64,000 nt of DNA from Prolixibacteraceae bacterium (GTDB taxonomy: Bacteria > Bacteroidota > Bacteroidia > Bacteroidales > Prolixibacteraceae), in contig JAENXA010000001.1 in the NCBI GenBank assembly GCA_016649735.1, forward strand, positions 2,664 through 66,663, in the 5' to 3' direction. The notes below the pieces were generated by a model. It was not told where the DNA came from. It saw only the letters and a list, made by a program, of their open reading frames with translations, and did no database searches. How positions within the stretch are numbered: position 1 is the first letter of the stretch; each line of letters opens with the position of its first letter. Made by a program: the position numbers and the translations under genes. Positions 1,722 to 54,709 of the stretch are shown here, one piece after another.

Positions 1722-2501
1722 TTAGAAACCAAAAATTTGTGCAAGACACCCTTTCTTTTTAGGTTCGGGAGGTATCGGTGGCTCAGGTGGAACCGGAGGA
1801 TCAAAACTTTTTGAATCTACTGTAGTCCACAGCTCGTATTGCATCCCAAAGTCATCATAGGACATAACGCAATACCCTTCTTTTCCCCAGTCAGCACCCC
1901 ATGAATTTCGTATGATGAATCCTTCCTTGTTATATCCTACCACGCATAAGGCATGGCCACCAAGAAGATATTCCCCTTTGTTCTTAAACCACATCCTCTC
2001 TGTATAGTTATAAACCGGGATAGCAATGACACATGGTCCATTTGAGAATAGAGATGTTTTCAGATCGTTAATGGTGTCAATAGAACCATAATTGCTGATC
2101 TTATAAAGAGAAGCGTTCATAAGTACTTCAATAGAGGGTAATCCTTTTGTCCCATAAGGAAATACGGATTCAGTACAATCACCCTTTTCTTTTAATACTT
2201 CCATCAGATCCCTCATGTACATACCTTCTTCATTGATGTTCTCCCTGTTATTATATATGAACTGAGGACTCATGTAATCATTCATGTTGACATCAATGTG
2301 TTCCTGCCACTCTTTCATTGCAGCACCGGACATAGCAGCGCATGAACCCTGACTCCCCTGATCACGAATAGGAAACATCACAGGACGATAATCAACAATC
2401 TCTGGTAATGCCACTTTTGGGTAAATAGCAGATACTTTCCAGTCCCGTTTGTCTTTCGGACTTGGAGTGACATTCAATTTATATTGTGAGAAGTCTTTCA
2501 T
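1722..2501 (-). CDS. papain-family (C1A) cysteine peptidase
   Basis: Catalytic motifs in the correct order: DQGSQGSCAAMSG (Cys), GGHALCVVGY (His), NSWGADWGKEGY (Asn-Ser-Trp). Pro-rich tail PPVPPEPPIPPEP. No signal peptide. Start taken at ATG 2499-2501, directly after the upstream stop. Confidence 0.75.
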   Translation of the reverse strand: MKDFSQYKLNVTPSPKDKRDWKVSAIYPKVALPEIVDYRPVMFPIRDQGSQGSCAAMSGAAMKEWQEHIDVNMNDYMSPQFIYNNRENINEEGMYMRDLMEVLKEKGDCTESVFPYGTKGLPSIEVLMNASLYKISNYGSIDTINDLKTSLFSNGPCVIAIPVYNYTERMWFKNKGEYLLGGHALCVVGYNKEGFIIRNSWGADWGKEGYCVMSYDDFGMQYELWTTVDSKSFDPPVPPEPPIPPEPKKKGCLAQIFGF

Positions 2502-8291: not shown

Positions 8292-8299
8292 CAAATGTA
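8292..8299 (-). promoter_or_regulatory. candidate -7 box (TACATTTG) upstream of the scaffold and capsid genes
   Basis: Plus-strand CAAATGTA is TAnnTTTG on the minus strand, 24-31 nt upstream of ATG 8268. Confidence 0.3.
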
Positions 8300-10610: not shown

Positions 10611-12932
10611 TTAGTACTTTCTCATTGAACCATACTCTCTTTTTGTTAAATAACTATCAAGGGTATATGCCTTCTCGTCTATCTCCTGTGTCTCGTTATA
10701 TGAACCACAAGTACCAAGTAGTGCGTATCCCCCTGCTGTAAAGAGGTCATAATTAGTCATATCTTCCGGCCCGTCAATATCCCTGCATTCCTCTAATATT
10801 TCAATATGATTCTCTATATCAGCCTCATTTTCAATCCATGTCATGTACTCCTGAAAGATGCTCTGCTTGGTGCGATTTGCTGTGTCTCCGGGGGTGGCAC
10901 TTATCTTGAAAGTATTCGGGTCCATCTTGTAAAGTAAGAACCCTTCCCATCCCCTGTCTCTGAAATAATCCCAAAGGAACGGCACGTCTATCTCAGGAAA
11001 CATAGGTACCCCGTAATAAATGCACATCATAAGCATGTCCTCGCCATAGATATTTTTATCAAATGTCCTCTGAGCATAGGTACATGCGAACTTACGCTTC
11101 ATGGAGATGTCCCCGTCCTTAATCATACCTTTCTTTACTACGGCACCACCTCCTTTTGACTTTCTTGTGCCTTTAGTTATATTGAATTTGAACGGGTCTC
11201 CTCCTGCCACGCCCCAATGCGCATTTGCGGGCTTCCATGTTTCTTCTTCATCACTCCAGAACTTCTTATTTGATTCGAGTTCATTAAGCTGATGGCTTAG
11301 TCTAAATTTGCCCTGTGGGTTTGCAGTAAAAATAACCTTGCCATCCCTTACATTCTCTTTCCAACTCAAATTACCTACTGCGATATCCTGCTTGCTGAAA
11401 GATAGGTTATCAATATACGATTCGAGTTTATTCATATTAAACCCTGACGACTTTGCTGCGGTGCGGAAACACTCTATAAAACGTGTGGGGTATAGTCTTA
11501 TTTCCTCAGATAACGCTTCCTGCTCATCGGTAAATGCCTTACGTCTGTTTGCCAAAAACTCCCTCGCCCCTACCTCTTTTCTGACATATTCAGCTTTGTT
11601 TTTTATCAATGCGTTGATAACAACATTGCTATGCTTATCAAAAGCCTCTACCCTGTCATACGCGATGTATTCAGCCTGCTCTTTTGTCGGGGCGTTTATA
11701 ATACTCATCCCAAACTTATCAATGAATCCTTCCAAACCATCGTAAGCTGGAATGAACAATGTGGCAAGTCCTGATTTAGTCTGCCCGTTCTGTGTGCGTT
11801 GATAGTATCTGCTCATCTTACACTGATACTTAAATGAAGCACCTCCACCTTTCTCCATCTCCCCTACCGTGGATGTTTTAATAGTATATCCGATGATCTT
11901 TGCTCCAATAGAAAGACACTCTTTTACAACCGTATGCCTATCCCAACACAACAGTCCTTTTTTCAGTTTACCAACCTCATCATCATGGTGAAAGTATAAT
12001 TTGTCGCCATCATAAGCCGATGCGTCTGCCATCTCATAACTGATGCCCGATTCAAGTCCCAGTTCTGATGTGGATAACGCTCCCCGGGAAGAAAGTCTTT
12101 TTGCAGGAGGCGTAAAGGATAGTTCTGTCTTTGGTGATGTAGAACCCTCATAGTTTGGCTTAAAGAAAAATGGCAGTTTCTTCCATGGTGCTACAAGATG
12201 CCTGAGAAAACATTTACGAGCCTGTACATCATTCATGGACTGTATTCCTCCAAATGCTGACATCGTACGCGAGATGATCTCATAGTGGATACATTCGGCC
12301 TTATATGTCGCTCCCTCGCGCCTATGCTTGGGATAATTGAATCCATAAAACAATCTTCTGCCAAAATCTACCCATATATAATTTCCTTTCGCATCCCTTG
12401 TCGCAAAACCATCATTATTAACCCTTGGTGCTTTTGTTTCAGTATAGATTTTACGTGCAAATAAAAAGAATCGCCTGTCCCTGTCCCTGTAATCCGGCAG
12501 ACCTGTGTCTATCTTCCACCATGCACAATAAAAATAATGCCACCCGTCAATGAATGTGGGTATGCCGTTATTATAAAACCAATACCCGTTAAGCCTTCTG
12601 TCCCATTGTGTTTTAATAAACTCGATCTCCTCGGTATAGATGTCTTTATGATCTTCCAACTCATCCCATATCTCATCAAGGGTCTCCATCTTTATCTGAA
12701 GTTCCTTTAACCGCTTTGGAAGTTTTGGTGCATGCCATATCTGATCTTGCGCAGGCAATCCGAAATTATCTATCAGATGAGGCTCTGGGGGTATCGGCAG
12801 TTCGAGTTCAATAGGAATAAGGTCTTTATCATCGGTGTTTACCCATACACTCTTATCCGCATCCTCATACCCAGATAATATCTGAGCATCGACTTCTTTG
12901 TAATAGCGTTTTAAGAGTGCGAGATGATTCAT
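10611..12932 (-). CDS. terL: terminase large subunit
   Basis: The track start is TTG, so ATG 12930-12932 is used; it overlaps the upstream stop as ATGA. Motifs: deviant Walker A-like HRREGATYK, Walker B-like LYFHHDDE, and nuclease-domain-like WGVAGGDPF and YYGVPMFPE. Sits upstream of the portal. Confidence 0.7.
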   Translation of the reverse strand: MNHLALLKRYYKEVDAQILSGYEDADKSVWVNTDDKDLIPIELELPIPPEPHLIDNFGLPAQDQIWHAPKLPKRLKELQIKMETLDEIWDELEDHKDIYTEEIEFIKTQWDRRLNGYWFYNNGIPTFIDGWHYFYCAWWKIDTGLPDYRDRDRRFFLFARKIYTETKAPRVNNDGFATRDAKGNYIWVDFGRRLFYGFNYPKHRREGATYKAECIHYEIISRTMSAFGGIQSMNDVQARKCFLRHLVAPWKKLPFFFKPNYEGSTSPKTELSFTPPAKRLSSRGALSTSELGLESGISYEMADASAYDGDKLYFHHDDEVGKLKKGLLCWDRHTVVKECLSIGAKIIGYTIKTSTVGEMEKGGGASFKYQCKMSRYYQRTQNGQTKSGLATLFIPAYDGLEGFIDKFGMSIINAPTKEQAEYIAYDRVEAFDKHSNVVINALIKNKAEYVRKEVGAREFLANRRKAFTDEQEALSEEIRLYPTRFIECFRTAAKSSGFNMNKLESYIDNLSFSKQDIAVGNLSWKENVRDGKVIFTANPQGKFRLSHQLNELESNKKFWSDEEETWKPANAHWGVAGGDPFKFNITKGTRKSKGGGAVVKKGMIKDGDISMKRKFACTYAQRTFDKNIYGEDMLMMCIYYGVPMFPEIDVPFLWDYFRDRGWEGFLLYKMDPNTFKISATPGDTANRTKQSIFQEYMTWIENEADIENHIEILEECRDIDGPEDMTNYDLFTAGGYALLGTCGSYNETQEIDEKAYTLDSYLTKREYGSMRKY

Positions 12933-13654
12933 ATCGTAATCCAATATTTACAATTAACGTCATCTGTCTGTACTGGTAATCCGGGAAACCAATCTGCAGG
13001 AAACACTGCTTTTGCTTTTGACAACCATGCTCCCCACCAGCTGAACGTACTGTTAGAGCCTATGATATATTCGGCTTTTGTCAGTAAATAAAAATCTTCT
13101 ATCGGTGTATTGCTAACATATTCAAAATCCTCTTTTATGGTGTCTTTTGCTTTTTGCAGATCATCGGTAATCACAATAACTCTTCTGCCTGGAAAGTGTT
13201 TGAGTGCTGCCATGTAATAATCCCGACTCATGTTATTAAATCCCATAGCAAGATATTGTGGTGCGTAGTTACGACAATGAAGCAATATACAGTCCTTGTA
13301 CGGTGTTTCTCCTCGATCCTTTAGGGTGAAGTAATGCCTTATCAAATCAGTGCAATGTTCAAAATATTTTTCTGACTGCAGGTATCCCCAAATAGATGAA
13401 TTGTCCGGGATATTGAACCCTATGAAATTTCCTTCCGGTATTTCCACATTTTGATAGTTTCCCGGAATGACTGAAGGCAATGGATTGACAAAATAATCCT
13501 GATTATTCCAATATGGGAATCCATAAGGATACCCATTCTTTACAGCGATGCCTATTGTTGATGCAATGAAAAATAAGATATTACCAAAAGTATTGTCTCC
13601 CTTGGCATCTGCTTTTGGTCGGTTATTAAACCACTCGTTTCTGAATGTTATCAT
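12929..13654 (-). CDS. GT11-like glycosyltransferase (alpha-1,2-fucosyltransferase family)
   Basis: C-terminal IGSNSTFSWWGAWL matches the conserved GT11 SNS(T/S)FSWWAA(Y/W)L motif. Length of 241 aa is appropriate. Confidence 0.6.
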   Translation of the reverse strand: MITFRNEWFNNRPKADAKGDNTFGNILFFIASTIGIAVKNGYPYGFPYWNNQDYFVNPLPSVIPGNYQNVEIPEGNFIGFNIPDNSSIWGYLQSEKYFEHCTDLIRHYFTLKDRGETPYKDCILLHCRNYAPQYLAMGFNNMSRDYYMAALKHFPGRRVIVITDDLQKAKDTIKEDFEYVSNTPIEDFYLLTKAEYIIGSNSTFSWWGAWLSKAKAVFPADWFPGLPVQTDDVNCKYWITI

Positions 13655-14268
13655 GGCTTTAGATATAATGCGTCACCCCATGTCTTTGGAGTGCTATCTG
13701 TTAGTACCCTCTGAAATCCAAACTCTTTTAAAAAGTTATCCAGATCACCTACAAGACAACATCCCTTATAAACTTCCTCAAAGTTAACTTCCGTATAGAT
13801 AATATCAATAAACGGAAGCGTTTCGACTGCACCTTTGAAGACTTCCAGTTCATATCCCTGAACATCAATATTGATCATATTATAGAGATCATGTCTAATG
13901 AAAATATTGTCCAATTTTTGAACTTTTACAATTTCTTTTTTGTCGAAAATTACACCGGGATATTGATAAAGATGCGTTCCTGGTTCAAGTAACGAACAAC
14001 TCTGCCCATTATTAGCTGTCTCTACATACATTTCTTTTTCTCCGGTCATATTACCAAGCGCAATATTGAATATTCGTATATTATCATCAGTGGCTATTCT
14101 CCGATGTAACTCATCACAGCTTGCGACTATTGGCTCAAAAAACATCATGTTTTCGATACCTTGCTTTTTATAATCCTGATATTCCTCCCCATAGTGTGCT
14201 CCGATATGCAATACACCTCGTATATTCAGATTGAAGTCTTTTATTATTTTATCAAGTTTTATAAGCAT
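13651..14268 (-). CDS. FkbM-family SAM-dependent methyltransferase
   Basis: Start set at ATG 14266-14268. Motifs: HIGAHYGEEY, FFEP, NIALGNMTGEKEMYV and IDVQGYELEVFKGA, typical of Methyltransf_21/FkbM. Confidence 0.7.
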   Translation of the reverse strand: MLIKLDKIIKDFNLNIRGVLHIGAHYGEEYQDYKKQGIENMMFFEPIVASCDELHRRIATDDNIRIFNIALGNMTGEKEMYVETANNGQSCSLLEPGTHLYQYPGVIFDKKEIVKVQKLDNIFIRHDLYNMINIDVQGYELEVFKGAVETLPFIDIIYTEVNFEEVYKGCCLVGDLDNFLKEFGFQRVLTDSTPKTWGDALYLKP

Positions 14269-14777
14269 CTTGCAATAAGTATATCGTTTGGAATAAACCC
14301 ATCTTCGAGCGTAAAAATATAATTGGGGTTGATCTCCAATATTTTCTTCATCAGATCCAGTGTATCGAATCCTCTTAATTCTTTTGTCCATCCTCTTAAA
14401 TCATCAATCAGTATAGTGTGTGTCTTAATTGGATGTGCCTTTATTGCTTCTAATTCCTCTAATAACGGGGTGTTCTTCTTCCCCATTGCCGTATCTAATC
14501 CGCAAAAATGACCATCGAGCCAAAAGGCTATTGGAGTAGTAATATGTTTTATAAACTTTGGGAGTTCTTCTGCTGAGTCGCCTTGGAATAAGGTTACATC
14601 GAAATTTCCTTCAAATCGCTTTGAACATAAATAATGAAGTTCTGTGGACAATTCAAATGACACAATGTTCTTAAATCCTGCATCCAACGCCTGCTGAACA
14701 CCATCTCCGTGCCACGTTCCGGTTTCAATGAAAATAGGATTAAGATACTTCTGAAAAATTTCTTTACTTGCTGGCAT
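14259..14777 (-). CDS. class I SAM-dependent methyltransferase-like protein
   Basis: FIETGTWHGDGVQQAL resembles SAM-binding motif I, followed by an acidic strand-end (SFELS). 172 aa. Confidence 0.45.
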   Translation of the reverse strand: MPASKEIFQKYLNPIFIETGTWHGDGVQQALDAGFKNIVSFELSTELHYLCSKRFEGNFDVTLFQGDSAEELPKFIKHITTPIAFWLDGHFCGLDTAMGKKNTPLLEELEAIKAHPIKTHTILIDDLRGWTKELRGFDTLDLMKKILEINPNYIFTLEDGFIPNDILIARCL

Positions 14778-15360
14778 TTGTATAACGATTAAAGTGATTA
14801 ATAATCTGAGTGTAATCTACATTCATATTTTCAATATCCGAGAATCCTGGTCTCTGTGTTGCTACAAGAGGACTGACAATATAGCAATTAAATTTCTCCT
14901 GAACCTCTGTAAAGTAAAACACGTCAAGCGTATTTCGTTCCAATGAGTTCCTAAAAAAACGATCGCAATTATTGAGAATATAATCCACAACCCTTTCGGA
15001 ATTATAGATTATCGCATGTGCGCAATAAGCTCCTTTTAATCGAAATAGGTTTTCAGAATGTCTCTCAATTGGTCTCATTAATGTTGCTCCAAGATATAGT
15101 AAGTCCCAATTATCTGGCAATTGGCTCATTGCATTTACTACTGCTTCCCATGGACGCAATAATACACAGTCATCCTCAAATATGATAAATGGAAATTCAT
15201 TTTCTATGGCGAGTATAGTGAGTTGTGATTCGGTGCATCCCTTCCATCCGGGGTTTGTCTTAATAGCATTAAACCGTTCAACTTCAAAAGGAAATATATT
15301 CCCTTGGAACTCAGCCATTCTATCAGGTCTGCTTTCAAGATTTATTACATACGCTTTCAT
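14764..15360 (-). CDS. GT25-family glycosyltransferase
   Basis: Start at ATG 15358-15360 (ATGA overlap with the upstream stop). MKAYVINLESRPDRMAEF is the GT25 N-terminal signature, and FIIFEDDC is DXD-like. Confidence 0.65.
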   Translation of the reverse strand: MKAYVINLESRPDRMAEFQGNIFPFEVERFNAIKTNPGWKGCTESQLTILAIENEFPFIIFEDDCVLLRPWEAVVNAMSQLPDNWDLLYLGATLMRPIERHSENLFRLKGAYCAHAIIYNSERVVDYILNNCDRFFRNSLERNTLDVFYFTEVQEKFNCYIVSPLVATQRPGFSDIENMNVDYTQIINHFNRYTNASK

Positions 15361-16460
15361 AATTCTTGTGACCATTTTAAAAGTTCATTATAAGAGTGTT
15401 CGTAGGTGTAGAAAGGGGCCCCTGATTCCAGATATACACTATCACTCATGCCGTATTCCTTTGCCTTATTATAGATGCTCGTGTTCGGAAGTACCCAACA
15501 TATATTTGGACCATATTGAGTTATCCGACTTCTTAACCTATTTGCCTTTGTTTCTTCAATGTTCTTGTAGGTATCTCCGGGCAACCCTACCAGAAATAAA
15601 CTCATGGTGTTTATTCCATTGTTCTCTGCAATCTCCACACCTCTCAACATCTTTTCTACTGTGGTGTTCTTTCCCATGCGGTCAAGTGCATCCTGGCTTA
15701 AAGATTCAATGCCAAAATGTACTTTTCTGCACCCGGCACGGTATAATTCTCTTGCAAGTTCCTCGTCCATAGATTCTGCACGTCCTACGCATTGCCATTT
15801 TAATTCTCCGTCAAGTCCTGCGCATATCTCAAAGACTCTTTTCTTATTTGCGGTGAAATTGTCGTCATAGAATATCCATGTCTTAAACCCTTCTGATTTG
15901 CGTTTCTCGATCTCAAGGATAACATTGTCGGCTGATCGCATCTGATATTTATGTCCCCAAAATTCTGTTGATCCACAGAAGTTACAACGAAATGGACAAC
16001 CTCTTGATGATATTATCGGAATACCCTGTGTTCCATAGAACTTCAATCCGGTATAATCAGGAAATGGAATCTCATTGATCCCATAGAAATATTTATGCTC
16101 ACAATTACTGACTATTTTTTCGTTATTTCCCTGCACTATGTCAATGATGGCATTTTCCCCTTCTCCTATCACAACCTGATCGTATCCTATTGAAAGCATT
16201 TGCTCTGGCATTGCTGATGGGTGATGGCCACCGCATATCAGTCTCCCTTTTATCCTATCTCTTATGAGCCTTGCGTGTCTTACTGAGAAACTGTGGAATG
16301 AAACTCCGGTTATATCGTAGGTTTCGGTATCATTTATTGCGTCATGAAGGTCTTTTACTGCAACATCAACTCCCTGATCCTTTAATGCCGACTGTAAGTA
16401 AGCGATTGAAGGTGGTGGAAATTCCCCTGTCTCCCATGGATTGATTAGTAGTACTCTCAT
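15357..16460 (-). CDS. B12-binding (class B) radical SAM enzyme
   Basis: N-terminal Rossmann-like MRVLLINPWE...AYLQSALKDQGVDV fits a cobalamin-binding domain. SSRGCPFRCNFCGS is the CxxxCxxC radical SAM cluster motif. Confidence 0.8.
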   Translation of the reverse strand: MRVLLINPWETGEFPPPSIAYLQSALKDQGVDVAVKDLHDAINDTETYDITGVSFHSFSVRHARLIRDRIKGRLICGGHHPSAMPEQMLSIGYDQVVIGEGENAIIDIVQGNNEKIVSNCEHKYFYGINEIPFPDYTGLKFYGTQGIPIISSRGCPFRCNFCGSTEFWGHKYQMRSADNVILEIEKRKSEGFKTWIFYDDNFTANKKRVFEICAGLDGELKWQCVGRAESMDEELARELYRAGCRKVHFGIESLSQDALDRMGKNTTVEKMLRGVEIAENNGINTMSLFLVGLPGDTYKNIEETKANRLRSRITQYGPNICWVLPNTSIYNKAKEYGMSDSVYLESGAPFYTYEHSYNELLKWSQEL

Positions 16461-16462
16461 GG

Positions 16463-17092
16463 CTAAAAATCTATGGCTCCCGGAATGTGCGCCACATAAT
16501 ACTGTGGTGTCGGTATCTTTACAGAAGGATGAGGTAATAAATACTTCTCAATCATCGCAAAATCATGTCCGTATCCATCTCCCCAGACAATATTTAGACT
16601 TCTTTTGTGTGCAATAGAACTTGTACCTATACGTCCAAGTGTGAGTAGATTGTCTCTTTCCCTTAGGTCTGTAAACTCGGCATTATGGACGGTATAGTCG
16701 TTGTAATACACCCAATCGTATTTTTCGGTATCAAAATTATCACTGATGATCTGCAGATGATTTTCCCCAAACTTATCATCATGGTCAAGATAGCAGATCA
16801 CATCTCCCTTTGCCATTTCAATTCCTGTCTGCCTGACAATACCACTGAATGTAGGCTGTTTATTAATGTACTTGAAATGTATTTTAGAATTATTAACCCA
16901 AAGGTGAGCCCACGTGTCTTCCGCAAGTCTGTCCCCGTCTGAAACAATGATAAGTTCTGCATCTTCATAAGATTGATGAAGAAATGATTTTACAGCTCGC
17001 ATAAACTTCACTCCCGGATTTGATGCGCCCCTACTTCCTCCATAGCTCTCATATCCTCCAAGATACACTGGCATTATGACTGATATTCTCAT
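16463..17092 (-). CDS. GT2-family glycosyltransferase
   Basis: MRISVIMPVY...FLHQSYEDAELIIVSDGD and YLDHDD (DXD) are typical of the GT-A/GT2 fold. Confidence 0.7.
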   Translation of the reverse strand: MRISVIMPVYLGGYESYGGSRGASNPGVKFMRAVKSFLHQSYEDAELIIVSDGDRLAEDTWAHLWVNNSKIHFKYINKQPTFSGIVRQTGIEMAKGDVICYLDHDDKFGENHLQIISDNFDTEKYDWVYYNDYTVHNAEFTDLRERDNLLTLGRIGTSSIAHKRSLNIVWGDGYGHDFAMIEKYLLPHPSVKIPTPQYYVAHIPGAIDF

Positions 17093-18353: not shown

Positions 18354-19036
18354 ATCTTTGCGAGTAAATTTCGTCTCTGAACCCTGTAATACTTCGCACC
18401 ACCATCAATCTTTGCATGGAGATCATACTGCAAGGGAATATCGTTACTCTTACGGATGACAACAACATCATCCACGGCAATATCCACACCTTCATCTGAA
18501 CTGCCCTCATCTACGTATTGTCTATTGGCTATCCCTGCATATTTAACTCTGCCGTAGATAACCTCTTTGCTATTTCTTTTTTCTGTGATGATGAGCTCCA
18601 TGTTTAACTTAGCCATCCTTTCCTTGTCGTGTGTTATTGCCGGATCCTCTATGGGTTCTATCAACACATAACCGTTGGCTGGAATGATCTTTTCATCACG
18701 GATAATGGCATAGATAAATTGATATGGGATAAGCACAAACCTCTCACCGTCCTCAATGATACACCGGCTTTCCTTTGGTTTTAAGGCGTTTACGATCGAC
18801 AAATAATAAACAATGACACCATCGCCTATCTTTGCTTCCAATGGTGTTTGCCACGGCATCCCCTTGTTTGGTTCTCCTGAGTAGTATAGATGTGATGGCA
18901 GTCCAAATATAGTTCCGGTTACTGTTGTGTGCCGTTCTGGATCAAAGGTCGTATCAACGAATAACCCTCTCACGGTGTCATTCTCTTTGCCTAACTTAAT
19001 TAATATCAAGTTATTAAGTGTCCTTTTACGATCCAT
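18350..19036 (-). CDS. hypothetical protein with weak tandem GroES/Cpn10-like beta segments
   Basis: 228 aa. The second half (NGYVLIEPIED...GRVKYAG...VDDVVVIRKSNDIPL) loosely follows the Cpn10 pattern. Weak, by eye only. Confidence 0.4.
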   Translation of the reverse strand: MDRKRTLNNLILIKLGKENDTVRGLFVDTTFDPERHTTVTGTIFGLPSHLYYSGEPNKGMPWQTPLEAKIGDGVIVYYLSIVNALKPKESRCIIEDGERFVLIPYQFIYAIIRDEKIIPANGYVLIEPIEDPAITHDKERMAKLNMELIITEKRNSKEVIYGRVKYAGIANRQYVDEGSSDEGVDIAVDDVVVIRKSNDIPLQYDLHAKIDGGAKYYRVQRRNLLAKI

Positions 19037-19701
19037 CAGTCCTTAAAATTAAGATTTGCAAATTCACCGTGATATAATTTTGCAGCATCATCATAAGCGT
19101 GTGCAGCAAGTTCTTCGGTCTTAAAAGTTCCAAGATATTTCATTTTACCATTCAGCCTAATTGTTGCTTTAATATATTTCCATTTCCCTCTGCAAGTATA
19201 AATATGAACTCCTAGATATTTAGAAGTACTGCCTATTTGACTTATTACGTTTTGACAATTCTGGGCATGAGTGCAATTTCGAAGATTATATTGTTGATTA
19301 TTTAAAGTATTGTGGTCAATATGATCGACCATTAAACCCTTAGGCGTCTGCATTATTAAGCGATGCATTCTACATACAACTCCATTAATTCTGGTTTCGG
19401 CATAAAAATAATTATTACCCCATTTAACAGCACACCATTTAAATTGATTTAAATAATTAAATATTGCATCGTCAACCAATGCAACTTTGCCCTGAGTTAA
19501 ATTAATTGTTTTCATGACTTCCGATTTTAAATGATCCCGAACAAATGTATCTGGACGTGGAGTTCGGGAATCCACTTTCATCGGGCAATTACCCCCGACT
19601 ATCCAGATACAAATATATAAAATTATTTTCATTACCATCACTTCTTCCTCTTCCATGTCACCAACAATACTATCAGAAGTATTGCGGGTATGATTAGACA
19701 T
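19036..19701 (-). CDS. HNH homing endonuclease with C-terminal AP2 DNA-binding domain
   Basis: Motifs: HRLIMQTPKGLMVDHIDHNTLNNQQYNLRNCTHAQN (HNH_3 type), then YLGVH...WKYIKATIRLNGKMKYLGTFKTEELAAHAYDDAAKLYHGEFANLNF (AP2). The conserved part begins at MKTINL (ATG 19515), which is an alternative start. Confidence 0.75.
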   Translation of the reverse strand: MSNHTRNTSDSIVGDMEEEEVMVMKIILYICIWIVGGNCPMKVDSRTPRPDTFVRDHLKSEVMKTINLTQGKVALVDDAIFNYLNQFKWCAVKWGNNYFYAETRINGVVCRMHRLIMQTPKGLMVDHIDHNTLNNQQYNLRNCTHAQNCQNVISQIGSTSKYLGVHIYTCRGKWKYIKATIRLNGKMKYLGTFKTEELAAHAYDDAAKLYHGEFANLNFKD

Positions 19702-24470: not shown

Positions 24471-24713
24471 TTAAACCCACCCACTACCAATGGCATCACC
24501 ATAACTGGTGTAGTCGGTAGAACCGCCACAGAGAATGTCTGTTGCGGCTTGAAACCGCCAGTCCCATTCGCTCTTACTGCAGGTTGTCACACAATAATGT
24601 TTATTGTGCCATTGTGCTCCTTCTTTTGGTCCATGTGTCGTATGCTCCGTTACAGAGTTTAAGACGCAGACGCGGGCTTTCAGGAAAATCCTTGCTTTGA
24701 CATTGTAAGCCAT
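24471..24713 (-). CDS. hypothetical protein
   Basis: 80-aa ATG ORF immediately after the tmRNA terminator. Visibly GC-richer than its surroundings. Confidence 0.35.
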   Translation of the reverse strand: MAYNVKARIFLKARVCVLNSVTEHTTHGPKEGAQWHNKHYCVTTCSKSEWDWRFQAATDILCGGSTDYTSYGDAIGSGWV

Positions 24714-24744
24714 GATGCAAAAAATTAAGTTTAAAAACTATGAT

Positions 24745-24907
24745 TAAGAAAAAAAATTTAAACCAAACCGGGATTTAGCTCCCGGAAGGCTGTCTAAGCC
24801 ACTGCTTTAAGCGATGGATTATACATTTGAATTGTTTTGCCGTTTATTTTGGCGTACTACCTTCAACGAACTATTCCTTTATTTGCTGTCAAAACCAAGT
24901 CATCCCC
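24745..24907 (-). ncRNA. ssrA: tmRNA coding piece (5' acceptor strand, D-analogue, P2 strands, tag ORF, terminator)
   Basis: The minus strand from 24907 reads GGGGATGACTTGGTTTTGACAGCAAAT... Next comes TAGTAC|GCC and an open frame at 24853-24794. The stop lies in the hairpin GGCT-TAGAC-AGCC. The unit ends with the terminator hairpin CCGGGA-GCTAAA-TCCCGG (24785-24768) plus a T-rich run. Confidence 0.7.
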
Positions 24908-25042
24908 GTGGACGAGCGATTGCGGTAATATCGCATCTTAACAATGCTCCCTCAACCATTTTTGTCAATCTCTCTTAGGCTACCTCGAACTCTCCTAAGT
25001 TCATTTGGGCATTACCCAACAGCATCTTTAAGGCGAAAGAAG

Positions 25043-25091
25043 TGGAGATGCCGGGAGTCGAACCCGGGTCCAAACAAACTATCTAATAATT
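25043..25091 (-). ncRNA. ssrA: tmRNA acceptor piece (P2 3' strands, T-arm, 3' acceptor strand)
   Basis: The minus strand reads AATTATT-AGATA-GTTTGTT-T-GGAC-CCGGG-TTCGACT-CCCGG-CATCTCC-A. CATCTCC pairs with GGGGATG at 24907-24901, including a G3-U wobble. CCA is not encoded. The 5' boundary could extend to about 25126. Confidence 0.7.
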
Positions 25092-25126
25092 CTCCAGTAA
25101 TATATTTTCAAAGAACTTTTATTTAA

Positions 25127-25657
25127 TTACACTGCTAATGTCTTGAAATGGCGTGTTATACCATACTTCTCTCCTGTGGCATTAGACACCCTTAACCTGT
25201 AAGCATACTTCGTATCAGGGGTGAGCCCTATAAGTGTTGAATGACAGGCATGAGTCCCTACGGTTGCTTTTGGACTTTCGTTAGCAGCCAGGTGTGATCC
25301 GTAGCTATCAAGGTCTTCCGTGGAATCAACCTCAAAGAATAATGTTGTGGAGATAGCCTGTGTGAGTACTGCCGTGCCATGGACTGTTGCTGTGGTACTG
25401 CCTGTGACTTCCACACCATCGGTGATACCTATCGGGGGCCTGTCGTTATCCAAAGCACTGCCATATCTAAGAACTTCTTCTGCATCGGCTATTCTCTGAT
25501 CCCACTCATCTCTTGGGAGCTCCATTGTAGGGATGTCGATGATGACTTTTCTCTGTGCGCCATCTCTCCCTGGACGGTTCTGTGGATCACTCCTGTCATT
25601 TAACTCATTGGCGAGTCCGAGTATCCTTACTTTAATTCTGACATTCTTGTTACTCAT
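25127..25657 (-). CDS. small protein with C-terminal fibronectin type III-like domain
   Basis: ...STLIGLTPDTKYAYRLRVSNATGEKYGITRHFKTL fits the FN3 C-terminal strand pattern (gL.P.T.Y..rV.A.N..G......f.T). GC-richer by eye. Confidence 0.5.
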   Translation of the reverse strand: MSNKNVRIKVRILGLANELNDRSDPQNRPGRDGAQRKVIIDIPTMELPRDEWDQRIADAEEVLRYGSALDNDRPPIGITDGVEVTGSTTATVHGTAVLTQAISTTLFFEVDSTEDLDSYGSHLAANESPKATVGTHACHSTLIGLTPDTKYAYRLRVSNATGEKYGITRHFKTLAV

Positions 25658-25695: not shown

Positions 25696-25703
25696 CAAAA
25701 TTA
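25696..25703 (-). promoter_or_regulatory. candidate -7 box (TAATTTTG) upstream of the FN3 gene and the tmRNA unit
   Basis: Plus-strand CAAAATTA is TAnnTTTG on the minus strand, about 40 nt upstream of ATG 25657. No terminator lies between this gene and the tmRNA pieces. Confidence 0.25.
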
Positions 25704-26630: not shown

Positions 26631-26861
26631 TTATTTTAGTAACTCCATTAGTTTCTCTTCAAGCCACTTCACGTAATCTGTATTGGGTTTATTAAATATG
26701 ATTGTACCCCGATTCCCTGCCAAATCAAATTTCTCCGCATCTGACATATCGAGTATCCACTGACCTTTTGATCGCCATACATCAAATACAACTTCTTCTT
26801 CGTCAAAAGATGTATTACTCGTTTCTGCCTTGTATTTCATTTGCAGTTCGAGTCTGTTCAT
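26631..26861 (-). CDS. hypothetical protein
   Basis: 76-aa ATG ORF. Its start overlaps the upstream stop. Confidence 0.45.
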   Translation of the reverse strand: MNRLELQMKYKAETSNTSFDEEEVVFDVWRSKGQWILDMSDAEKFDLAGNRGTIIFNKPNTDYVKWLEEKLMELLK

Positions 26862-27613
26862 TTGCTGTCCTCCATATCAGGTAGCAATATATCATCGTCC
26901 GTAGTCTCTTTTGCACCAAACTCACACCGCATCCGGCAATACTCAGAATTATAATGCAGGCAATCACGATATTTAACCGGTGCATCGCTCTCACACAGCT
27001 TTCCTTCCGGAAAATTAAGATTGGCAAATTCTCCTTTGAGTTCTTTCGCTTTAGCATCGTATAATTTAGCAGCAATAATCACATCTCTTGTAGTGCCTAA
27101 ATCATAAACCACCCCATTATGTGTAATAGATACTCCATAAGAAAGTCCCCATGTTCCTGTTTTCTTTTTAAACCATCTATGCTCACTAACTCCAAGGTAT
27201 TGAATTTTGCCACGAGGTTTAATCCAACTTCTGTTTTGATTTACAGTGCAGTTTCGTAAATTATATCTGCGGTTATTCAATCCGTCCCAATCTCTATGGT
27301 CTGTTTGCATGTCATCAGGTGTCTGCATTATCTCCCTGTGCATAATAATTGCGATTCTTTTTCCACTTTCAAGTGTTTTGTTTCTGTACGCATAGTTCGT
27401 ATCTCTACTTTTTCTAGCAAACCACTTCCATTGATTCAGCCAATCATAGTCTCCTATGTCAACTTTCGTAGATAAACCTCTTGATAACGGAATTTCTTTC
27501 CATGCCACGCTTTGGCCAGGAGCAACACCATCCACATTAACCACCGTAGGTTGCATCACAGTCATCTTTACATAACGTCCCCCTTCCTCAGCTCTGTACT
27601 TCTTCTTTTCCAT
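26858..27613 (-). CDS. HNH homing endonuclease with AP2 domain (paralog of 19036-19701)
   Basis: Motifs: HREIMQTPDDMQTDHRDWDGLNNRRYNLRNCTVNQN, then YLGVSEH...ITHNGVVYDLGTTRDVIIAAKLYDAKAKELKGEFANLNF. Confidence 0.75.
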   Translation of the reverse strand: MEKKKYRAEEGGRYVKMTVMQPTVVNVDGVAPGQSVAWKEIPLSRGLSTKVDIGDYDWLNQWKWFARKSRDTNYAYRNKTLESGKRIAIIMHREIMQTPDDMQTDHRDWDGLNNRRYNLRNCTVNQNRSWIKPRGKIQYLGVSEHRWFKKKTGTWGLSYGVSITHNGVVYDLGTTRDVIIAAKLYDAKAKELKGEFANLNFPEGKLCESDAPVKYRDCLHYNSEYCRMRCEFGAKETTDDDILLPDMEDSK

Positions 27614-40974: not shown

Positions 40975-41787
40975 TTATAACTTGTAATTAATTTCTAATT
41001 GACTATCTGATCCTTTCCTTCCGCGAAGCATAACCTCAAACGAATCCCTGATTTTTCTTGCTTCCTCTATTGTTTCAGCATTCCCCCCATAGTACGATTT
41101 GCCATTACTCCCTAAGTAAATACTATATGGTCTTAATTCCCATGATCTATAAAATATCCCGTAGTCTGGACGTTTCCTTTTGTTCAATTGATTTACTCTT
41201 CTTGTTACAAATCTACAATTAGATGGCTCATAATTACCATCATTGTCCTCACGATCAATTTCTAAGGTATCTTTATATCCATGGGATAATGCCCACTCCA
41301 TGAATGGGATGAATTTCTTCCATTCCTCGCAAATAGAAATATTTCTTCCCCCGTAATTATGATAAGAACTATCATTTGGATTAGTGATTCTTTGTACCAT
41401 GGCATCCCAGACTCTATATAGCCGAGTATTAGACATTCTATGCTTAGAATGTAATTGATTTGTCATGCACCCACAATTTGCATTACGATTTTCATATTTG
41501 TATAATTGGGCAAGTGCTTTTTCTGTTATATTTCCACAATCACAGAGACATTTTACATAACGCTCCCTGCCTCCCTTATTATTCGGCTTATAAAACTCTT
41601 CAATTACGGTTACTCTGCCAAATTTTAATCCGGGATTCCCTAATAATTTTCTTTTAAATGCCATAGGTTTTACGAATAAAGTAGCCCCGATTGATAATGG
41701 CGTACCACTCAATCCGAAAAGGAGAGAATGCATTATCGCACGGGGCTGATTTATAATTTCTTTATTCATCGAATTGGTGATACGCAT
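40975..41787 (-). CDS. homing-endonuclease-like protein (HNH-family annotation type) with AP2-like C-terminus
   Basis: CLCDCGN...CGC, then RLYRVWDAMVQRITNPNDSSYHNYGGRNISICEEW...LEIDREDNDGNYEPSNCRFVT..VN. The C-terminus is YRSWELRPYSIYLGSNGKSYYGGNAETIEEA. Confidence 0.6.
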   Translation of the reverse strand: MRITNSMNKEIINQPRAIMHSLLFGLSGTPLSIGATLFVKPMAFKRKLLGNPGLKFGRVTVIEEFYKPNNKGGRERYVKCLCDCGNITEKALAQLYKYENRNANCGCMTNQLHSKHRMSNTRLYRVWDAMVQRITNPNDSSYHNYGGRNISICEEWKKFIPFMEWALSHGYKDTLEIDREDNDGNYEPSNCRFVTRRVNQLNKRKRPDYGIFYRSWELRPYSIYLGSNGKSYYGGNAETIEEARKIRDSFEVMLRGRKGSDSQLEINYKL

Positions 41788-43831: not shown

Positions 43832-44593
43832 TTAAAATTTATTAAGTGGATGATTTGTTTTATGTGTGATTATAAAATTATTATATGCCTGTGCTGCCTG
43901 TTCAGGAAATTCAAAATACCCTAAATAGTAGAATTTTCCATTAAACCCTATTTGCGACATCCATTTTTTTGCATCCTTTTTCCGTTTATGATAAAATACT
44001 CCACGAAATCCTGAAGTATTATTATTTTGGATCAATCGGGTATTTTGATTATTTATGGAATGGGTGGTAAATTCACAATTCTCTGGATTATACCCCTTAT
44101 CATTATCCCTCCTGTTTAGTTCGTATTTTTGCCCCTCTGTATATCCTTCTTTTTTTGCCCATTCATAAAAATTAATGAAATCCTCATTCCATTCCTTGCA
44201 AACAGAAATTCCTCTACTTCCATAGTCTTTATAAGATGGCGAATTTGGATTAAAACATCTACCTTTCATCATAGACCACCTTTTATAAAGTGGATGTCTC
44301 CACATTCTATGTTTGGGTGTGCCAAAAGAAGAACACCGACAGGCTTTTGTATGTCCATGTTTAATAGCATATATACTTGCCCTGAATGGCTGCTTGCATA
44401 GGGGGCATTCAAATATTCCTAAATGTTTTTTGACCTTACTTTTTTCACAAGGATATTGTAATCCTAAATCTTCAATCATTTTCATGGTAGTAGATAATGG
44501 AACATCCCCGGCTGCTTTATCCATCAGTATCCGAGAATAGACCTCGAAAGGTGATGAAACCGGGGATGTAATATTTTTAACTAAAATTTCCAT
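43832..44593 (-). CDS. homing-endonuclease-like protein with AP2 domain (paralog of 40975-41787)
   Basis: The track start is TTG, so ATG 44591-44593 is used. CPLCKQ...CRC, then PLYKRWSMMKGRCFNPNSPSYKDYGSRGISVCKEW...LNRRDNDKGYNPENCEFTT. The AP2 segment is FRGVFYHKRKKDAKKWMSQIGFNGKFYYLGYFEFPEQAAQAYN. Confidence 0.6.
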   Translation of the reverse strand: MEILVKNITSPVSSPFEVYSRILMDKAAGDVPLSTTMKMIEDLGLQYPCEKSKVKKHLGIFECPLCKQPFRASIYAIKHGHTKACRCSSFGTPKHRMWRHPLYKRWSMMKGRCFNPNSPSYKDYGSRGISVCKEWNEDFINFYEWAKKEGYTEGQKYELNRRDNDKGYNPENCEFTTHSINNQNTRLIQNNNTSGFRGVFYHKRKKDAKKWMSQIGFNGKFYYLGYFEFPEQAAQAYNNFIITHKTNHPLNKF

Positions 44594-44648
44594 TATAGAT
44601 ACTGTGAATAAAGCGTAACAAAGATATGAAATAAAATTGATATGCAAG

Positions 44649-53308: not shown

Positions 53309-53677
53309 TTATCTTGGTATATGTGTTGGTTCTCCCATTCCTGCTCTCTCAGAGAAAGCATGAAATATAATAATAGCAGGTCCCGTATATTCAGAATATT
53401 TCCACATAGCACGATTTGACGAAACTTTACACTTGCCTTCCTGTGGTGGCGTTGTGATGATGTAAACAACACCCTCTTCACACAAGGGGAAAAGTATACC
53501 GTCATTCATAACCAATGCTTTTCCCGCATCATGCTCTATCTCTGCGGTCACAAATGCCCTTCTTGGAGGAATAGGAATATTAAACAACTTGCAAATTTTA
53601 CGCTTCTTCTTTGAAAGTTTTTTCTCTAATGTGGTTTCTATTGTTGTCCACTTAGTGATATTAAATTCAGTTTTCAT
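53309..53677 (-). CDS. hypothetical protein
   Basis: 122-aa ATG ORF. Confidence 0.45.
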   Translation of the reverse strand: MKTEFNITKWTTIETTLEKKLSKKKRKICKLFNIPIPPRRAFVTAEIEHDAGKALVMNDGILFPLCEEGVVYIITTPPQEGKCKVSSNRAMWKYSEYTGPAIIIFHAFSERAGMGEPTHIPR

Positions 53678-54321
53678 ACCTTAATATATTTTTCCGATTT
53701 TTCGTTTCTGACTATAAACTTTGGGCCCTCCCCTTTCAGGTCAGTATAGGGATAAGCAACATCTAATTCTGGACATAATATTTTACCTTTAGAATATACG
53801 GGTCTTGTTTTATTAGTAATAGTACTAATTGCAAGATTTGTTAACGAAGAAAACTGTCCGATAGTGAAGATGTTATACCAAAGCATGTCCTCTACCAGTT
53901 TTCTGGGCAGATTAGTTCTCTTTTCAATCATAGAGATTACTAAGTCATCGGTATCTACATGTAAACAAAGGAATCCCACATCTTTTTTAAGAGGACTTTT
54001 GAGTTCGGGACTATTGAAGTAAATTACCGATGCTATATTATATGTAGGTTTTAATTTTGCTACCCAGAAAGATTCTCTCTCATACAACGAAAACCGATCT
54101 TCAATAAATTCTATTATTTCAAACGCAAATGACTGTTCTCCGAATAATTTAAAATCTTTCTTTAACCTACTATTATAATGGGTATTGGTGCGTAACATAT
54201 TTAAGTGAGCATATTTTCTCGTAAAATAATTCCGAGTACTCCCAACATAAGTATTGCCACTTTTGTTATTTGAAATTCCATAAACAACTGACCCCTTATA
54301 ATTTTCAAATAATGATTCCAT
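53674..54321 (-). CDS. GIY-YIG homing endonuclease
   Basis: N-terminal VVYGISNNKSGNTYVGSTRNYFTRKYAHLN...FEIIE (GIY...YVG..R...E). Its C-terminal DNA-binding-like module is shared with the next ORF. Confidence 0.7.
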   Translation of the reverse strand: MESLFENYKGSVVYGISNNKSGNTYVGSTRNYFTRKYAHLNMLRTNTHYNSRLKKDFKLFGEQSFAFEIIEFIEDRFSLYERESFWVAKLKPTYNIASVIYFNSPELKSPLKKDVGFLCLHVDTDDLVISMIEKRTNLPRKLVEDMLWYNIFTIGQFSSLTNLAISTITNKTRPVYSKGKILCPELDVAYPYTDLKGEGPKFIVRNEKSEKYIKV

Positions 54322-54701: not shown

Positions 54702-54709
54702 CAAAATTA
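54702..54709 (-). promoter_or_regulatory. candidate -7 box (TAATTTTG)
   Basis: Plus-strand CAAAATTA lies 22-29 nt upstream of ATG 54680, in an AT-rich spacer right after the terminator. Confidence 0.3.

Follow-up and report, generated by a model that had tools for sequence, protein, structure and literature searches.

A circularly permuted, two-piece tmRNA gene of probable Bacteroidota descent in a genome fragment of a lytic-type phage

Does a phage genome fragment recovered within a Bacteroidota assembly carry a transfer-messenger RNA (tmRNA) gene whose halves stand in reversed order, and if so, from which lineage was it drawn? The stretch analysed, called the window throughout, comprises 64,000 nucleotides (nt) of contig JAENXA010000001.1 (assembly GCA_016649735.1, Prolixibacteraceae bacterium; positions 2,664 to 66,663), and all coordinates refer to positions within it. 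On the minus strand at 25116-24749 we found a circularly permuted tmRNA gene, with the acceptor piece first and the coding piece second. Very probably this gene is a functional tmRNA derived from Bacteroidota that a lytic-type tailed phage with a Bacteroidota host carries as an accessory cassette.

The only RNA gene that ARAGORN reported in the 64 kb is a permuted tmRNA (24703-25132, minus strand) with the tag GKTIQMYNPSLKAVA. The Rfam model RF04321 (tmRNA_permuted) matched 25091-24794 across the full model (positions 1-213) with 62.4 bits and E = 1e-9, its gathering score being 47 bits, while the standard Rfam tmRNA model reached 29.5 bits against a threshold of 47, with all of the signal coming from the T-arm and acceptor. 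An initial annotation, made from the sequence alone, had proposed a two-piece permuted tmRNA at this position and had named ARAGORN and Rfam as checks; both agree with it, as does the covariation among homologues described below. The older clade-specific alpha, beta and cyano models gave no separate hits in the Rfam copy used, and hence no model-based subtype. The parts of the gene are as follows.

25043..25116 (-): acceptor piece, its 5' end placed by comparison with family members
25116-25107 (-): 5' motif GUUCUUUGAA of the acceptor piece
25102-25096 (-): P2c strand, acceptor piece
25095-25093 (-): GGA, non-bulged side of the kink-turn-like loop, acceptor piece
25092-25085 (-): P2b strand, acceptor piece (AATTATT at 25091-25085)
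25079-25071 (-): P2a strand, acceptor piece (GTTTGTT at 25079-25073)
25071-25068 (-): GGAC before the T-arm
25067-25051 (-): T-arm (CCGGG 25067-25063, loop TTCGACT 25062-25056, CCCGG 25055-25051)
25050-25044 (-): 3' acceptor strand CATCTCC
25043 (-): discriminator A
24908..25042 (-): intervening segment of 135 nt, presumably excised
24749..24907 (-): coding piece, placed by ARAGORN, Rfam, co-folds and covariation
24907-24901 (-): 5' acceptor strand GGGGATG, pairing 7/7 with CATCTCC; G3 pairs with U70
24896-24888 (-): D-loop analogue GGTTTTGAC
24888-24881 (-): P2a strand, coding piece (AGCAAAT at 24887-24881)
24875-24868 (-): P2b strand, coding piece (AATAGTT at 24875-24869)
24867-24862 (-): kink-turn-like bulge and GAA, coding piece
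24861-24855 (-): P2c strand, coding piece, then a 13-nt linker to the tag open reading frame (ORF)
24794..24841 (-): tag reading frame, resume codon GGC 24841-24839, peptide GKTIQMYNPSLKAVA, stop TAG 24796-24794
24817-24799 (-): P5 hairpin in the 3' half of the tag frame, covarying
24749..24785 (-): terminal hairpin CCGGGAGCUAAAUCCCGG (24785-24768), then U-tract UUUGGUUUAAAUUUUUUUU, from terminator scan and covariation

The elements first annotated were present on the minus strand just as described: the T-arm, 7-nt 3' acceptor strand and discriminator A at 25071-25043, and the GGGGATG partner 135 nt downstream, from 24907, with all 7 positions paired and the G3.U wobble included. The proposed D-loop analogue at 24896-24888 is also there and is identical to that of Bacteroidota tmRNAs (GGUUUUGAC), with P2 coming next. 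The extent first given, 24745-25091, was right in location and wrong in its 5' limit, as the acceptor piece begins near 25116; we placed this end by comparison with members of the family whose 5' motif is preceded, at 3-10 nt, by a promoter box or by the 3' end of a tRNA. CCA is not encoded, and A-C-U-U continues after the acceptor end.

The tag frame has no start codon, resumes in the context UAAAC-GGC and ends in an Ala-rich hydrophobic C-terminus before the stop. What had been called a tag-like frame followed by an intrinsic terminator corresponds to the open frame from GGC 24841 to TAG and to the hairpin at 24785-24768 with its U-tract; the hairpin acts as both intrinsic terminator and 3' end of the coding piece. 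GCC at 24853-24851, in frame in the window, was considered as the resume codon instead and rejected, since the corresponding Ala codon of other members (e.g. L134, L147) either lies in another frame or runs into a stop; GGC was preferred because it is invariant across members together with its UAAAC context.

The pattern GGTTTTGACAG-N25-55-AAACGGCAAAAC retrieved 11 viral and 31 metagenomic stretches from IMG/VR and JGI metagenomes, corresponding to ~30 distinct genes, and this family of uncultured-phage copies seems to be undescribed so far. Seven members tested with the Rfam permuted model scored 49-73 bits. The acceptor stem was paired at 7/7 positions in 28/28 members with both pieces in the retrieved locus (8 sequence variants), and the T-stem at 5/5 in the window and in all 28 two-piece loci (13 variants). 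G3.U70 and the discriminator A are invariant across the family and position 5 of the 3' strand is always U, while neighbouring pairs vary; CCA is usually unencoded. Every member with a complete coding piece has a single GGC-start frame open, with tags that all begin GKT, are 15-17 amino acids (aa) long (26 aa in two), follow the pattern GKTI...AVA/LAA and end in AVA, LAA, MVA, AAA or VAA; indels in the tag frame stay in frame. The homologue L134 scored 70.5 bits with Rfam, has compensatory changes in the T-stem and acceptor stem, and carries the block TAAACGGCAAAACAAT around the resume codon.

Covariation was measured on an alignment (A2) of 11 window-type members from which the intervening segment had been removed. 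Standard pairs filled 92.1% of alignment cells, compared with 35-54% when partners were slid by 1-3 columns, and both-side changes were observed at 21 pairs, compared with 1-7 in the slid controls. None of 500 shuffles matched the observed value on four of five measures, and 6 of 500 did so for further pair types. The acceptor stem and the T-stem both covary. Among the helices that join the two pieces, paired cells reached 95.5% in P2a, 90.9% in P2b and 97.4% in P2c, with both-side changes at 7 pairs in P2; 4 of these are in P2b (e.g. UAGAUC/GAUCUA, UAAGCC/GGCUUA, AUAAAUC/GAUUUAU) and 2 in the third inter-piece helix, P2c (25102-25096 with 24861-24855). The P5 hairpin covaries, and the terminal hairpin has both-side changes at 5/6 pairs. 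Independent co-folds of the two pieces gave the same three trans helices in window-type members, and the two first proposed, AGCAAAT/GTTTGTT and AATAGTT/AATTATT, were recovered in the window by co-folding at their annotated positions and covary across homologues. The covariation across homologues settles the observation as real.

The gene differs most from a canonical tmRNA in its pseudoknots, as PK1 to PK4 are all missing: P2c and the resume codon are just 13 nt apart, and the tag is followed by P5 and one hairpin alone. The absence of room for PK2-PK4 had been noted correctly in the initial annotation, which was incomplete in that PK1 is missing too and in that it overlooked P2c. With only these 13 nt no PK1 is possible; a PK1-like pseudoknot was tried and rejected, the linker being too short and a GCC...GGC pairing of 3 bp too weak and unsupported. 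PK1 is, to our knowledge, nearly universal in tmRNAs, and we know of no alpha, beta or cyano permuted lineage that fails to keep at least PK1. The loss lowers the likeness to canonical tmRNA but does not alter membership in the permuted family, because the RF04321 model covers the tRNA-like domain alone (PMC11915505).

At the usual site of PK1, the internal loop between P2b and P2c (24875-24855 with 25102-25085) bears the sequence signature of a kink-turn: a 3-nt bulge follows the C-stem and leads into G-A on the bulged strand, while a second G-A stands immediately ahead of the C-stem on the facing strand. The window has its bulged strand, GUUC-GUU-GA-A (24871-24862), in the coding piece and the opposing GGA (25095-25093) in the acceptor piece. 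A second subgroup (14 members, L029-type) has the loop in flipped orientation, with GUUC-NUU-GA-A at the 5' end of the acceptor piece bulged and the partner GGA-GAAC 13-19 nt upstream of the resume codon. We observed the signature also in L029, L292, L271, L145, L300, L150, L147, L273, L276, L288, L301, L296, L141 and L281. NNN-GA was found on the bulged strand of 24/25 members and the opposite-strand A in 25/25, preceded by G in 22/25, while the C-stem covaries (GUUC/GAAC, GUUC/GAGC, GUAC/GUAC, AUCC/GGGU), as do the helices that flank the loop. The match to a kink-turn is thus one of sequence, and tandem sheared G.A/A.G pairs are predicted.

The motif has an orphan second copy, GUUC(U/A)UUGAA, at the acceptor-piece 5' end of window-type members (25116-25107 in the window), with no partner identified. 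The same motif recurs right after the coding piece in L144, L148, L280, L295 and L278, all of which are without a U-tract terminator. This copy could act as a signal for processing or be a vestige left by the rearrangement. Pairing of the 5' GUUC with GAAC/GAGC in the terminal hairpin loop or with the U-tract was considered and set aside, as it offers 4-5 weak pairs, is inconsistent among members and disrupts the stem.

The segment between the two pieces is a conserved structured RNA and not a neutral spacer, judging from its comparison across the family. TCGCC is found at 25035-25031 in the window and, in most members, a few nt after the acceptor 3' end, or further downstream where extra sequence such as a tRNA has been inserted. 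A 'type-1' module made of two covarying hairpins, AGAGAUUGACAAAAA and a third stem is common to the window, L272, L142, L147 and L278, with compensatory changes at 12/23 predicted pairs in these five sequences, while in other members a 'type-2' hairpin is found, its stem covarying and its loop reading CRCGUUAGU. No Rfam family matched the intervening segment at E <= 10. A hammerhead or other ribozyme was also considered and dropped, as the flanks of hairpin 2 misfit the CUGAnGA/GAAA core and the Rfam search at that cutoff was empty. A tRNA or tRNA-like unit lies within the intervening segment of L145 (3927-4002, minus strand), L286, L300, L276/L289 and L302 (crAssphage cr130_1, ~1600-1640); such units end exactly at the coding-piece 5' end, and other members are flanked by tRNAs on one or both sides. 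With tRNA units in and around the permuted genes, ordinary tRNA processing would therefore release the pieces.

The window is a fragment of a tailed-phage genome, with genes for a large terminase (TerL), a portal, virion proteins, a primase-helicase, and RecT- and RecE-like proteins. PHROG and Pfam scans of 42 distinct ORFs found no integrase in the 64 kb, and RecT/RecE, the primase-helicase and homing endonucleases are typical of a phage of lytic type. The nearest cultured TerL relatives are phages of Flavobacterium, Cellulophaga and Maribacter (27-30% identity), and closer uncultured relatives in IMG/VR share 60-85% TerL identity on contigs of ~72-78 kb. Searches of GenBank phages found no DNA similarity to the 2.5-kb region around the gene and nothing but generic T-arm matches for the tmRNA itself; with a one-piece Bacteroidota tmRNA as query they found no related cultured-phage gene. 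A Shine-Dalgarno-like 4-mer was observed in just 8/80 ORFs, and the Bacteroidota -7 promoter motif TAnnTTTG has an intergenic density 2.7x that within genes, while a sigma-70 promoter scan gave fewer sites than shuffles. Because of the TerL kinship, the few Shine-Dalgarno motifs, the intergenic TAnnTTTG and the lineage of the tmRNA, the host is most probably a member of Bacteroidota. TAnnTTTG boxes were observed 10-46 nt upstream of several genes (2909-2916, 8292-8299, 25696-25703, 54702-54709). A sigma-70-like TTGACA in the intervening segment was dismissed for its wrong spacing.

Two features directly upstream belong to the same slot or adjoin it.

25127..25657 (-): 176-aa ORF directly upstream of the tmRNA, with a weak fibronectin-like / purple-acid-phosphatase N-terminal hit
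25696..25703 (-): Bacteroidota-type -7 box TAATTTTG, upstream of coding sequence 25127-25657, a putative promoter

Homology to L113 and L115, the closest relatives, is lost at ~25700/25645 and resumes at ~24755, just past the terminator, so that the slot of ~25700-24755, with the 176-aa ORF and the tmRNA, holds different DNA in relatives. The tmRNA call was absent from 27/28 loci anchored on the downstream DUF6734 gene, L134 being the exception, and from 33/33 loci anchored on TerL, and members of the family sit on unrelated phage backbones. The tmRNA gene has the behaviour of a mobile accessory cassette. Five or more homing-endonuclease-type genes were also observed in the window, every one on the minus strand (HNH at 19036-19701, 26858-27613, 40975-41787 and 43832-44647; GIY-YIG-like at 53674-54321), one of them ~1.7 kb upstream of the tmRNA slot; their abundance fits frequent cassette turnover in the phage group.

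Gene anatomy, homology and covariation are demonstrated by these comparisons, while processing, charging, the use of host factors and a benefit to the phage are predicted to run as follows. A single precursor would start from the box at 25703-25696, run through the 176-aa ORF and end at the terminator (24785-24749). RNase P would cut 5' of G24907 and a tRNA 3'-end nuclease after A25043, with CCA supplied by the host CCA-adding enzyme, and the 135-nt intervening RNA would be released. The mature acceptor piece (~74 nt plus CCA) and coding piece (~150-160 nt) would assemble by the 7-bp acceptor stem and P2a/P2b/P2c (7 + 8 + 8 + 7 bp), and the complex would present a Bacteroidota-type tRNA-like domain with G3.U70 and A73. 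Host alanyl-tRNA synthetase would charge it, and host SmpB and EF-Tu would deliver it to stalled ribosomes. Translation would resume at GGC 24841, add A-GKTIQMYNPSLKAVA and stop at UAG, freeing the ribosome and marking the truncated protein. Candidate benefits to the phage are extra rescue capacity in infection, a phage-specific tag or altered fate of tagged proteins, and resistance to RNA-cleaving defences.

One variant of this account holds that rescue is real and that its pay-off lies elsewhere, either in a different fate of tagged proteins, with GKTI...AVA steering them towards or away from particular host proteases, or in countering defences that cleave mRNA or tRNA. The phage tags of 15-17 aa have an N-terminal part unrelated to the host GENNYALAA tags of 9-10 aa, yet conserved within the family, the gene moves as a cassette across phage backbones, and a like speculation has been offered for the tmRNA of phage Melnitz (PMC9004378). 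Part of this conservation comes, however, from the RNA hairpin P5 and not from the peptide, and the C-termini are still degron-like. We regard this variant as possible and rather doubtful, and its link to a protease or a defence as speculation.

The lineage of the gene was sought in bacterial genomes. The 5' motif GGGGnTGA(1-3)TGGTTTTGACAG was found in at least 120 bacterial genomes by a scan covering one genome per bacterial and archaeal species, of which the 120 matches listed are a sample; 118 of these 120 are titled Bacteroidota, and the other two are metagenome-assembled genomes labelled Clostridium and Competibacteraceae. ARAGORN, applied to 35 of the 120 listed loci, found a gene in 34, all of them standard one-piece genes of ~395 nt and 33 with GENNYALAA-type Gly-start tags. 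Among the listed matches, 0/120 had a permuted arrangement, an upstream matching T-arm or the resume block of the phage family.

The one-piece tmRNA of Mangrovibacterium marinum DSM 28823 (L179) has a near-identical 5' half, GGGGATGACTGGTTTTGACAGC, the window having one additional loop nt; its first 22-23 nt are near-identical to the window gene apart from this one nt fewer, and its last 34 nt are identical. Over the last 39 nt, all 100 bacterial genes with a locatable 3' end have 26-35 nt in common with the window gene. Also common to the phage gene and the one-piece Bacteroidota tmRNA are a P2 of three segments, resumption at Gly (GGC) in a UAAAC-like context and a tag rich in Ala at its end; UAAAC-GGC itself occurs in some Flavobacteriaceae tmRNAs and in the Bacteroidota locus L161, and the P2a strand UUGUUUGGAC is the Bacteroidota version. 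The two differ in architecture. The host-type gene is one piece of ~395 nt in the order P2, PK1, tag, P5, PK2-PK4, with a 9-10-aa tag (GENNYALAA), whereas the phage gene is permuted, has P2 in trans and no pseudoknots, would mature to ~230 nt and carries a 15-aa tag.

With the two-piece tmRNAs of Alphaproteobacteria, some Betaproteobacteria and Cyanobacteria, the alpha, beta and cyano lineages (RF04321; formerly RF01849-51), the gene shares the order of acceptor, intervening and coding parts and the joining by acceptor stem and P2. It is set apart by its Bacteroidota-type tRNA-like domain and resume codon and, across the family, by a structured intervening segment of 52-400 nt. In the RF04321 consensus the resume codon is one for Ala, and the alignment of the window gene with this consensus is confined to the tRNA-like domain; by this indirect comparison the traits of those lineages (an Ala resume codon, ANDN...-type tags) are not found here, the resume codon being Gly and the 5' motif Bacteroidota-type. 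From these sequences we infer, as the most economical account, that the window gene descends from a one-piece Bacteroidota tmRNA, was permuted separately from the alpha, beta and cyano genes, and lost PK1-PK4. An independent permutation stays at the level of inference because the tRNA-like domain is strongly selected for compatibility with the host and other permuted phage tmRNAs share similar 5' ends.

We hold tentatively, at somewhat less than an even chance, the larger joint claim: that the family is a fourth, phage-borne origin of tmRNA permutation, from a one-piece Bacteroidota ancestor, spreading as a cassette among phages of Bacteroidota, and the first tagged lineage without pseudoknots, with a kink-turn in place of PK1 and an intervening RNA that has a role of its own. 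As part of that claim, and just as tentatively, the excised intervening RNA would serve as a processing guide or as a separate small RNA.

An alternative to separate permutation is that a two-piece tmRNA was acquired from an alpha, beta or cyano lineage or from its phages and had its tRNA-like domain reshaped for a Bacteroidota host. RF04321, built solely from alpha, beta and cyano sequences (PMC11915505), does recognise the window gene; the T-arm/acceptor 23-mer recurs in numerous unrelated tmRNAs of phages, a sign of strong constraint on the tRNA-like domain; the permuted phage tmRNAs L016 and L022 have a very similar 5' end, GGGGAUGACUUGGUUUUCGACAGGG; and phages move two-piece tmRNAs across host classes, as in Melnitz (PMC9004378). 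Such an acquisition is nevertheless unlikely, given that the exact 5' motif is almost restricted to Bacteroidota among the matches listed (118/120), that the 34 nt at the 3' end equal those of Mangrovibacterium and the P2a strand UUGUUUGGAC is of Bacteroidota type, that Gly resumes in UAAAC-GGC as in Bacteroidota and not Ala as in the permuted consensus, and that alignment with this consensus ends at the tRNA-like domain.

Several points weigh against a functional phage tmRNA of Bacteroidota descent. The loss of all four pseudoknots, including PK1, may mean that the RNA works differently or less well. A single-sequence fold of the gene did not outscore shuffles (z = -0.74), so that the evidence for the structure is comparative, and the early caution over AU/GU-rich helices was justified for a lone sequence. 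All homologues come from uncultured contigs, the motif matches are a sample, and the host is a probable one; the likeness in tRNA-like domain and resume codon could be mimicked by selection for host compatibility. Expression of the window copy appears uncertain for want of a -7 box of its own: in most of the family the GUUC motif follows 5-10 nt after a TAnnTTTG box or the gene lies in a tRNA array, and neither box nor array was found directly upstream of the window acceptor piece. The RNA would also depend on host SmpB, as none was found in the window (tblastn, nothing below E = 0.08, a weak search with an E. coli query). Transcription, processing, alanylation and tagging are themselves predicted activities, read from the sequence.

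The missing pseudoknots and the missing SmpB, the latter from that same weak search, would also suit an RNA that mainly inhibits host trans-translation as a decoy, for instance by titrating SmpB. The model for such a decoy is the tmRNA of mycobacteriophage DS6A, as strongly reduced as that of the window and consisting of the tRNA-like domain only, without a tag frame; a DS6A-like molecule inhibits tmRNA in E. coli (PMC4131195, PMC11915505). The window family, unlike DS6A, retains the tag frame and resume context, and over ~30 members the tag frame, resume context, stop and P5 are conserved, with in-frame indels and Ala-rich hydrophobic C-termini. A decoy is quite improbable because a pure decoy needs none of these. 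That the locus is a non-functional remnant, either the 3' part of a host ssrA retained as an attP core, its 5'-like partner having arisen by chance, or a decaying captured gene, is hardly credible: tmRNA genes are common integration sites with ssrA fragments in prophages (PMC4383910, PMC9004378), the closest relatives are without the gene and the single-sequence fold is not significant, but both halves are present and covary in trans, the family is widespread with compensatory changes in every helix, and the window has a lytic-type gene set (RecT/RecE, primase-helicase, homing endonucleases) and no integrase, so that the attP scenario named as a refutation in the initial annotation fails.

Carriage of a permuted tmRNA by a phage is already known and ordinary, and the novelty first claimed on this ground was overstated. 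Two-piece tmRNAs are known in the OM43 phage Melnitz, pelagimyophages, CbK-like Caulobacter phages and some cyanophages, with 53 permuted among 133 unique phage tmRNA structures in one survey, whose Table S1 gives Cellulophaga phage phi4:1 as 'Permuted' and phi14:2 and phi38:1 as 'linear' (PMC9004378). The window gene shares with the Melnitz type that it is an accessory ssrA in a lytic phage, patchy within its phage group and called permuted by ARAGORN. The Melnitz-type tmRNAs match alpha or cyano lineages and sit in large myo- or siphophage genomes, that of Melnitz having a glutamine riboswitch, whereas the window has a Bacteroidota-type lineage in a ~75-kb relative of Flavobacteriia podophages with no Rfam riboswitch hit.

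Among phages of Bacteroidota, the RefSeq 'SsrA' of crAssphage cr130_1 (L302, NC_055901.1 82000-82390) is permuted according to both ARAGORN (tmRNA*) and RF04321 (54.4 bits). It falls outside the window family, being without the TGGTTTTGACAG and AAACGGCAAAAC blocks and having the tag DNYNVVDYTHVA, and it resembles the members L145 and L300 in its tRNA-like unit in the intervening segment. The phi4:1 gene is set apart from the family by the database search, in which no GenBank phage matched the window tmRNA beyond the T-arm. In the sources consulted, both permuted tmRNAs appear as a table entry or an annotation, without analysis (PMC9004378 Table S1; RefSeq). A 2025 tmRNA database sorts every permuted gene as alpha, beta or cyano, and counts without comment 79 sequences from phages and 48 permuted genes from genomes of Bacteroidota (PMC11915505). 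These 48 may belong to the phage family described here. Our literature search, which included few subscription journals, found no description of a Bacteroidota-phage tmRNA lineage, a tagged pseudoknot-free tmRNA or a tmRNA kink-turn. What looks new here is therefore the Bacteroidota-type lineage, the loss of pseudoknots with a kink-turn-like loop at the PK1 site, and the conserved structured intervening RNA.

The literature consulted treats tmRNA permutation as three bacterial events (alpha, beta, cyano). If true, an additional permutation in phages of a phylum with one-piece tmRNAs would mean that permutation recurs and that phages can be its site. A tagged tmRNA of ~230 nt without pseudoknots would be a minimal model for the purpose of PK1-PK4 and a test of whether a kink-turn can replace PK1, and the family offers a concrete system for the question of why phages invest in ribosome rescue. 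It could also serve as a host-prediction marker for uncultured Bacteroidota phages, and it points out sequences that tmRNA databases probably list under the alpha, beta or cyano types.

Another group of short permuted tmRNAs from phages was observed (L001, L002, L008, L023, L028), with Rfam scores of 69-73 bits, model matches of ~160 nt, intervening segments of ~20 nt and tags that start with Gly (GEQVELAMAA, GKQVEYAMAA); the Bacteroidota-type TGGTTTTGACAG is present in L002 at least, and the group may be a sister lineage of the window family. Within the family, L281, L284 and L298 are three identical tmRNA copies ~69.6 kb apart on one contig (JGI24728J21555_1000008, 165,133 bp), most likely a concatemeric assembly of a ~69.6-kb phage genome, the same as that of the L149 contig (69,374 bp).

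Elsewhere in the window, an ORF of 2590 aa (54829-62601, minus strand) had no Pfam or PHROG hit; its size and the podophage kinship make it a candidate for a virion-packaged RNA polymerase like that of crAss/phi14:2 phages. Next to the large terminase gene, at 12929-17092 (minus strand), glycosyltransferase-, methyltransferase- and GtrB-like genes form a cluster that may be a DNA- or surface-modification module. In the related locus L117, a type-P3 twister ribozyme (RF03154) was observed at 1940-2011 (minus strand), ~4 kb upstream of the DUF6734 gene, with 51 bits against 39.9.

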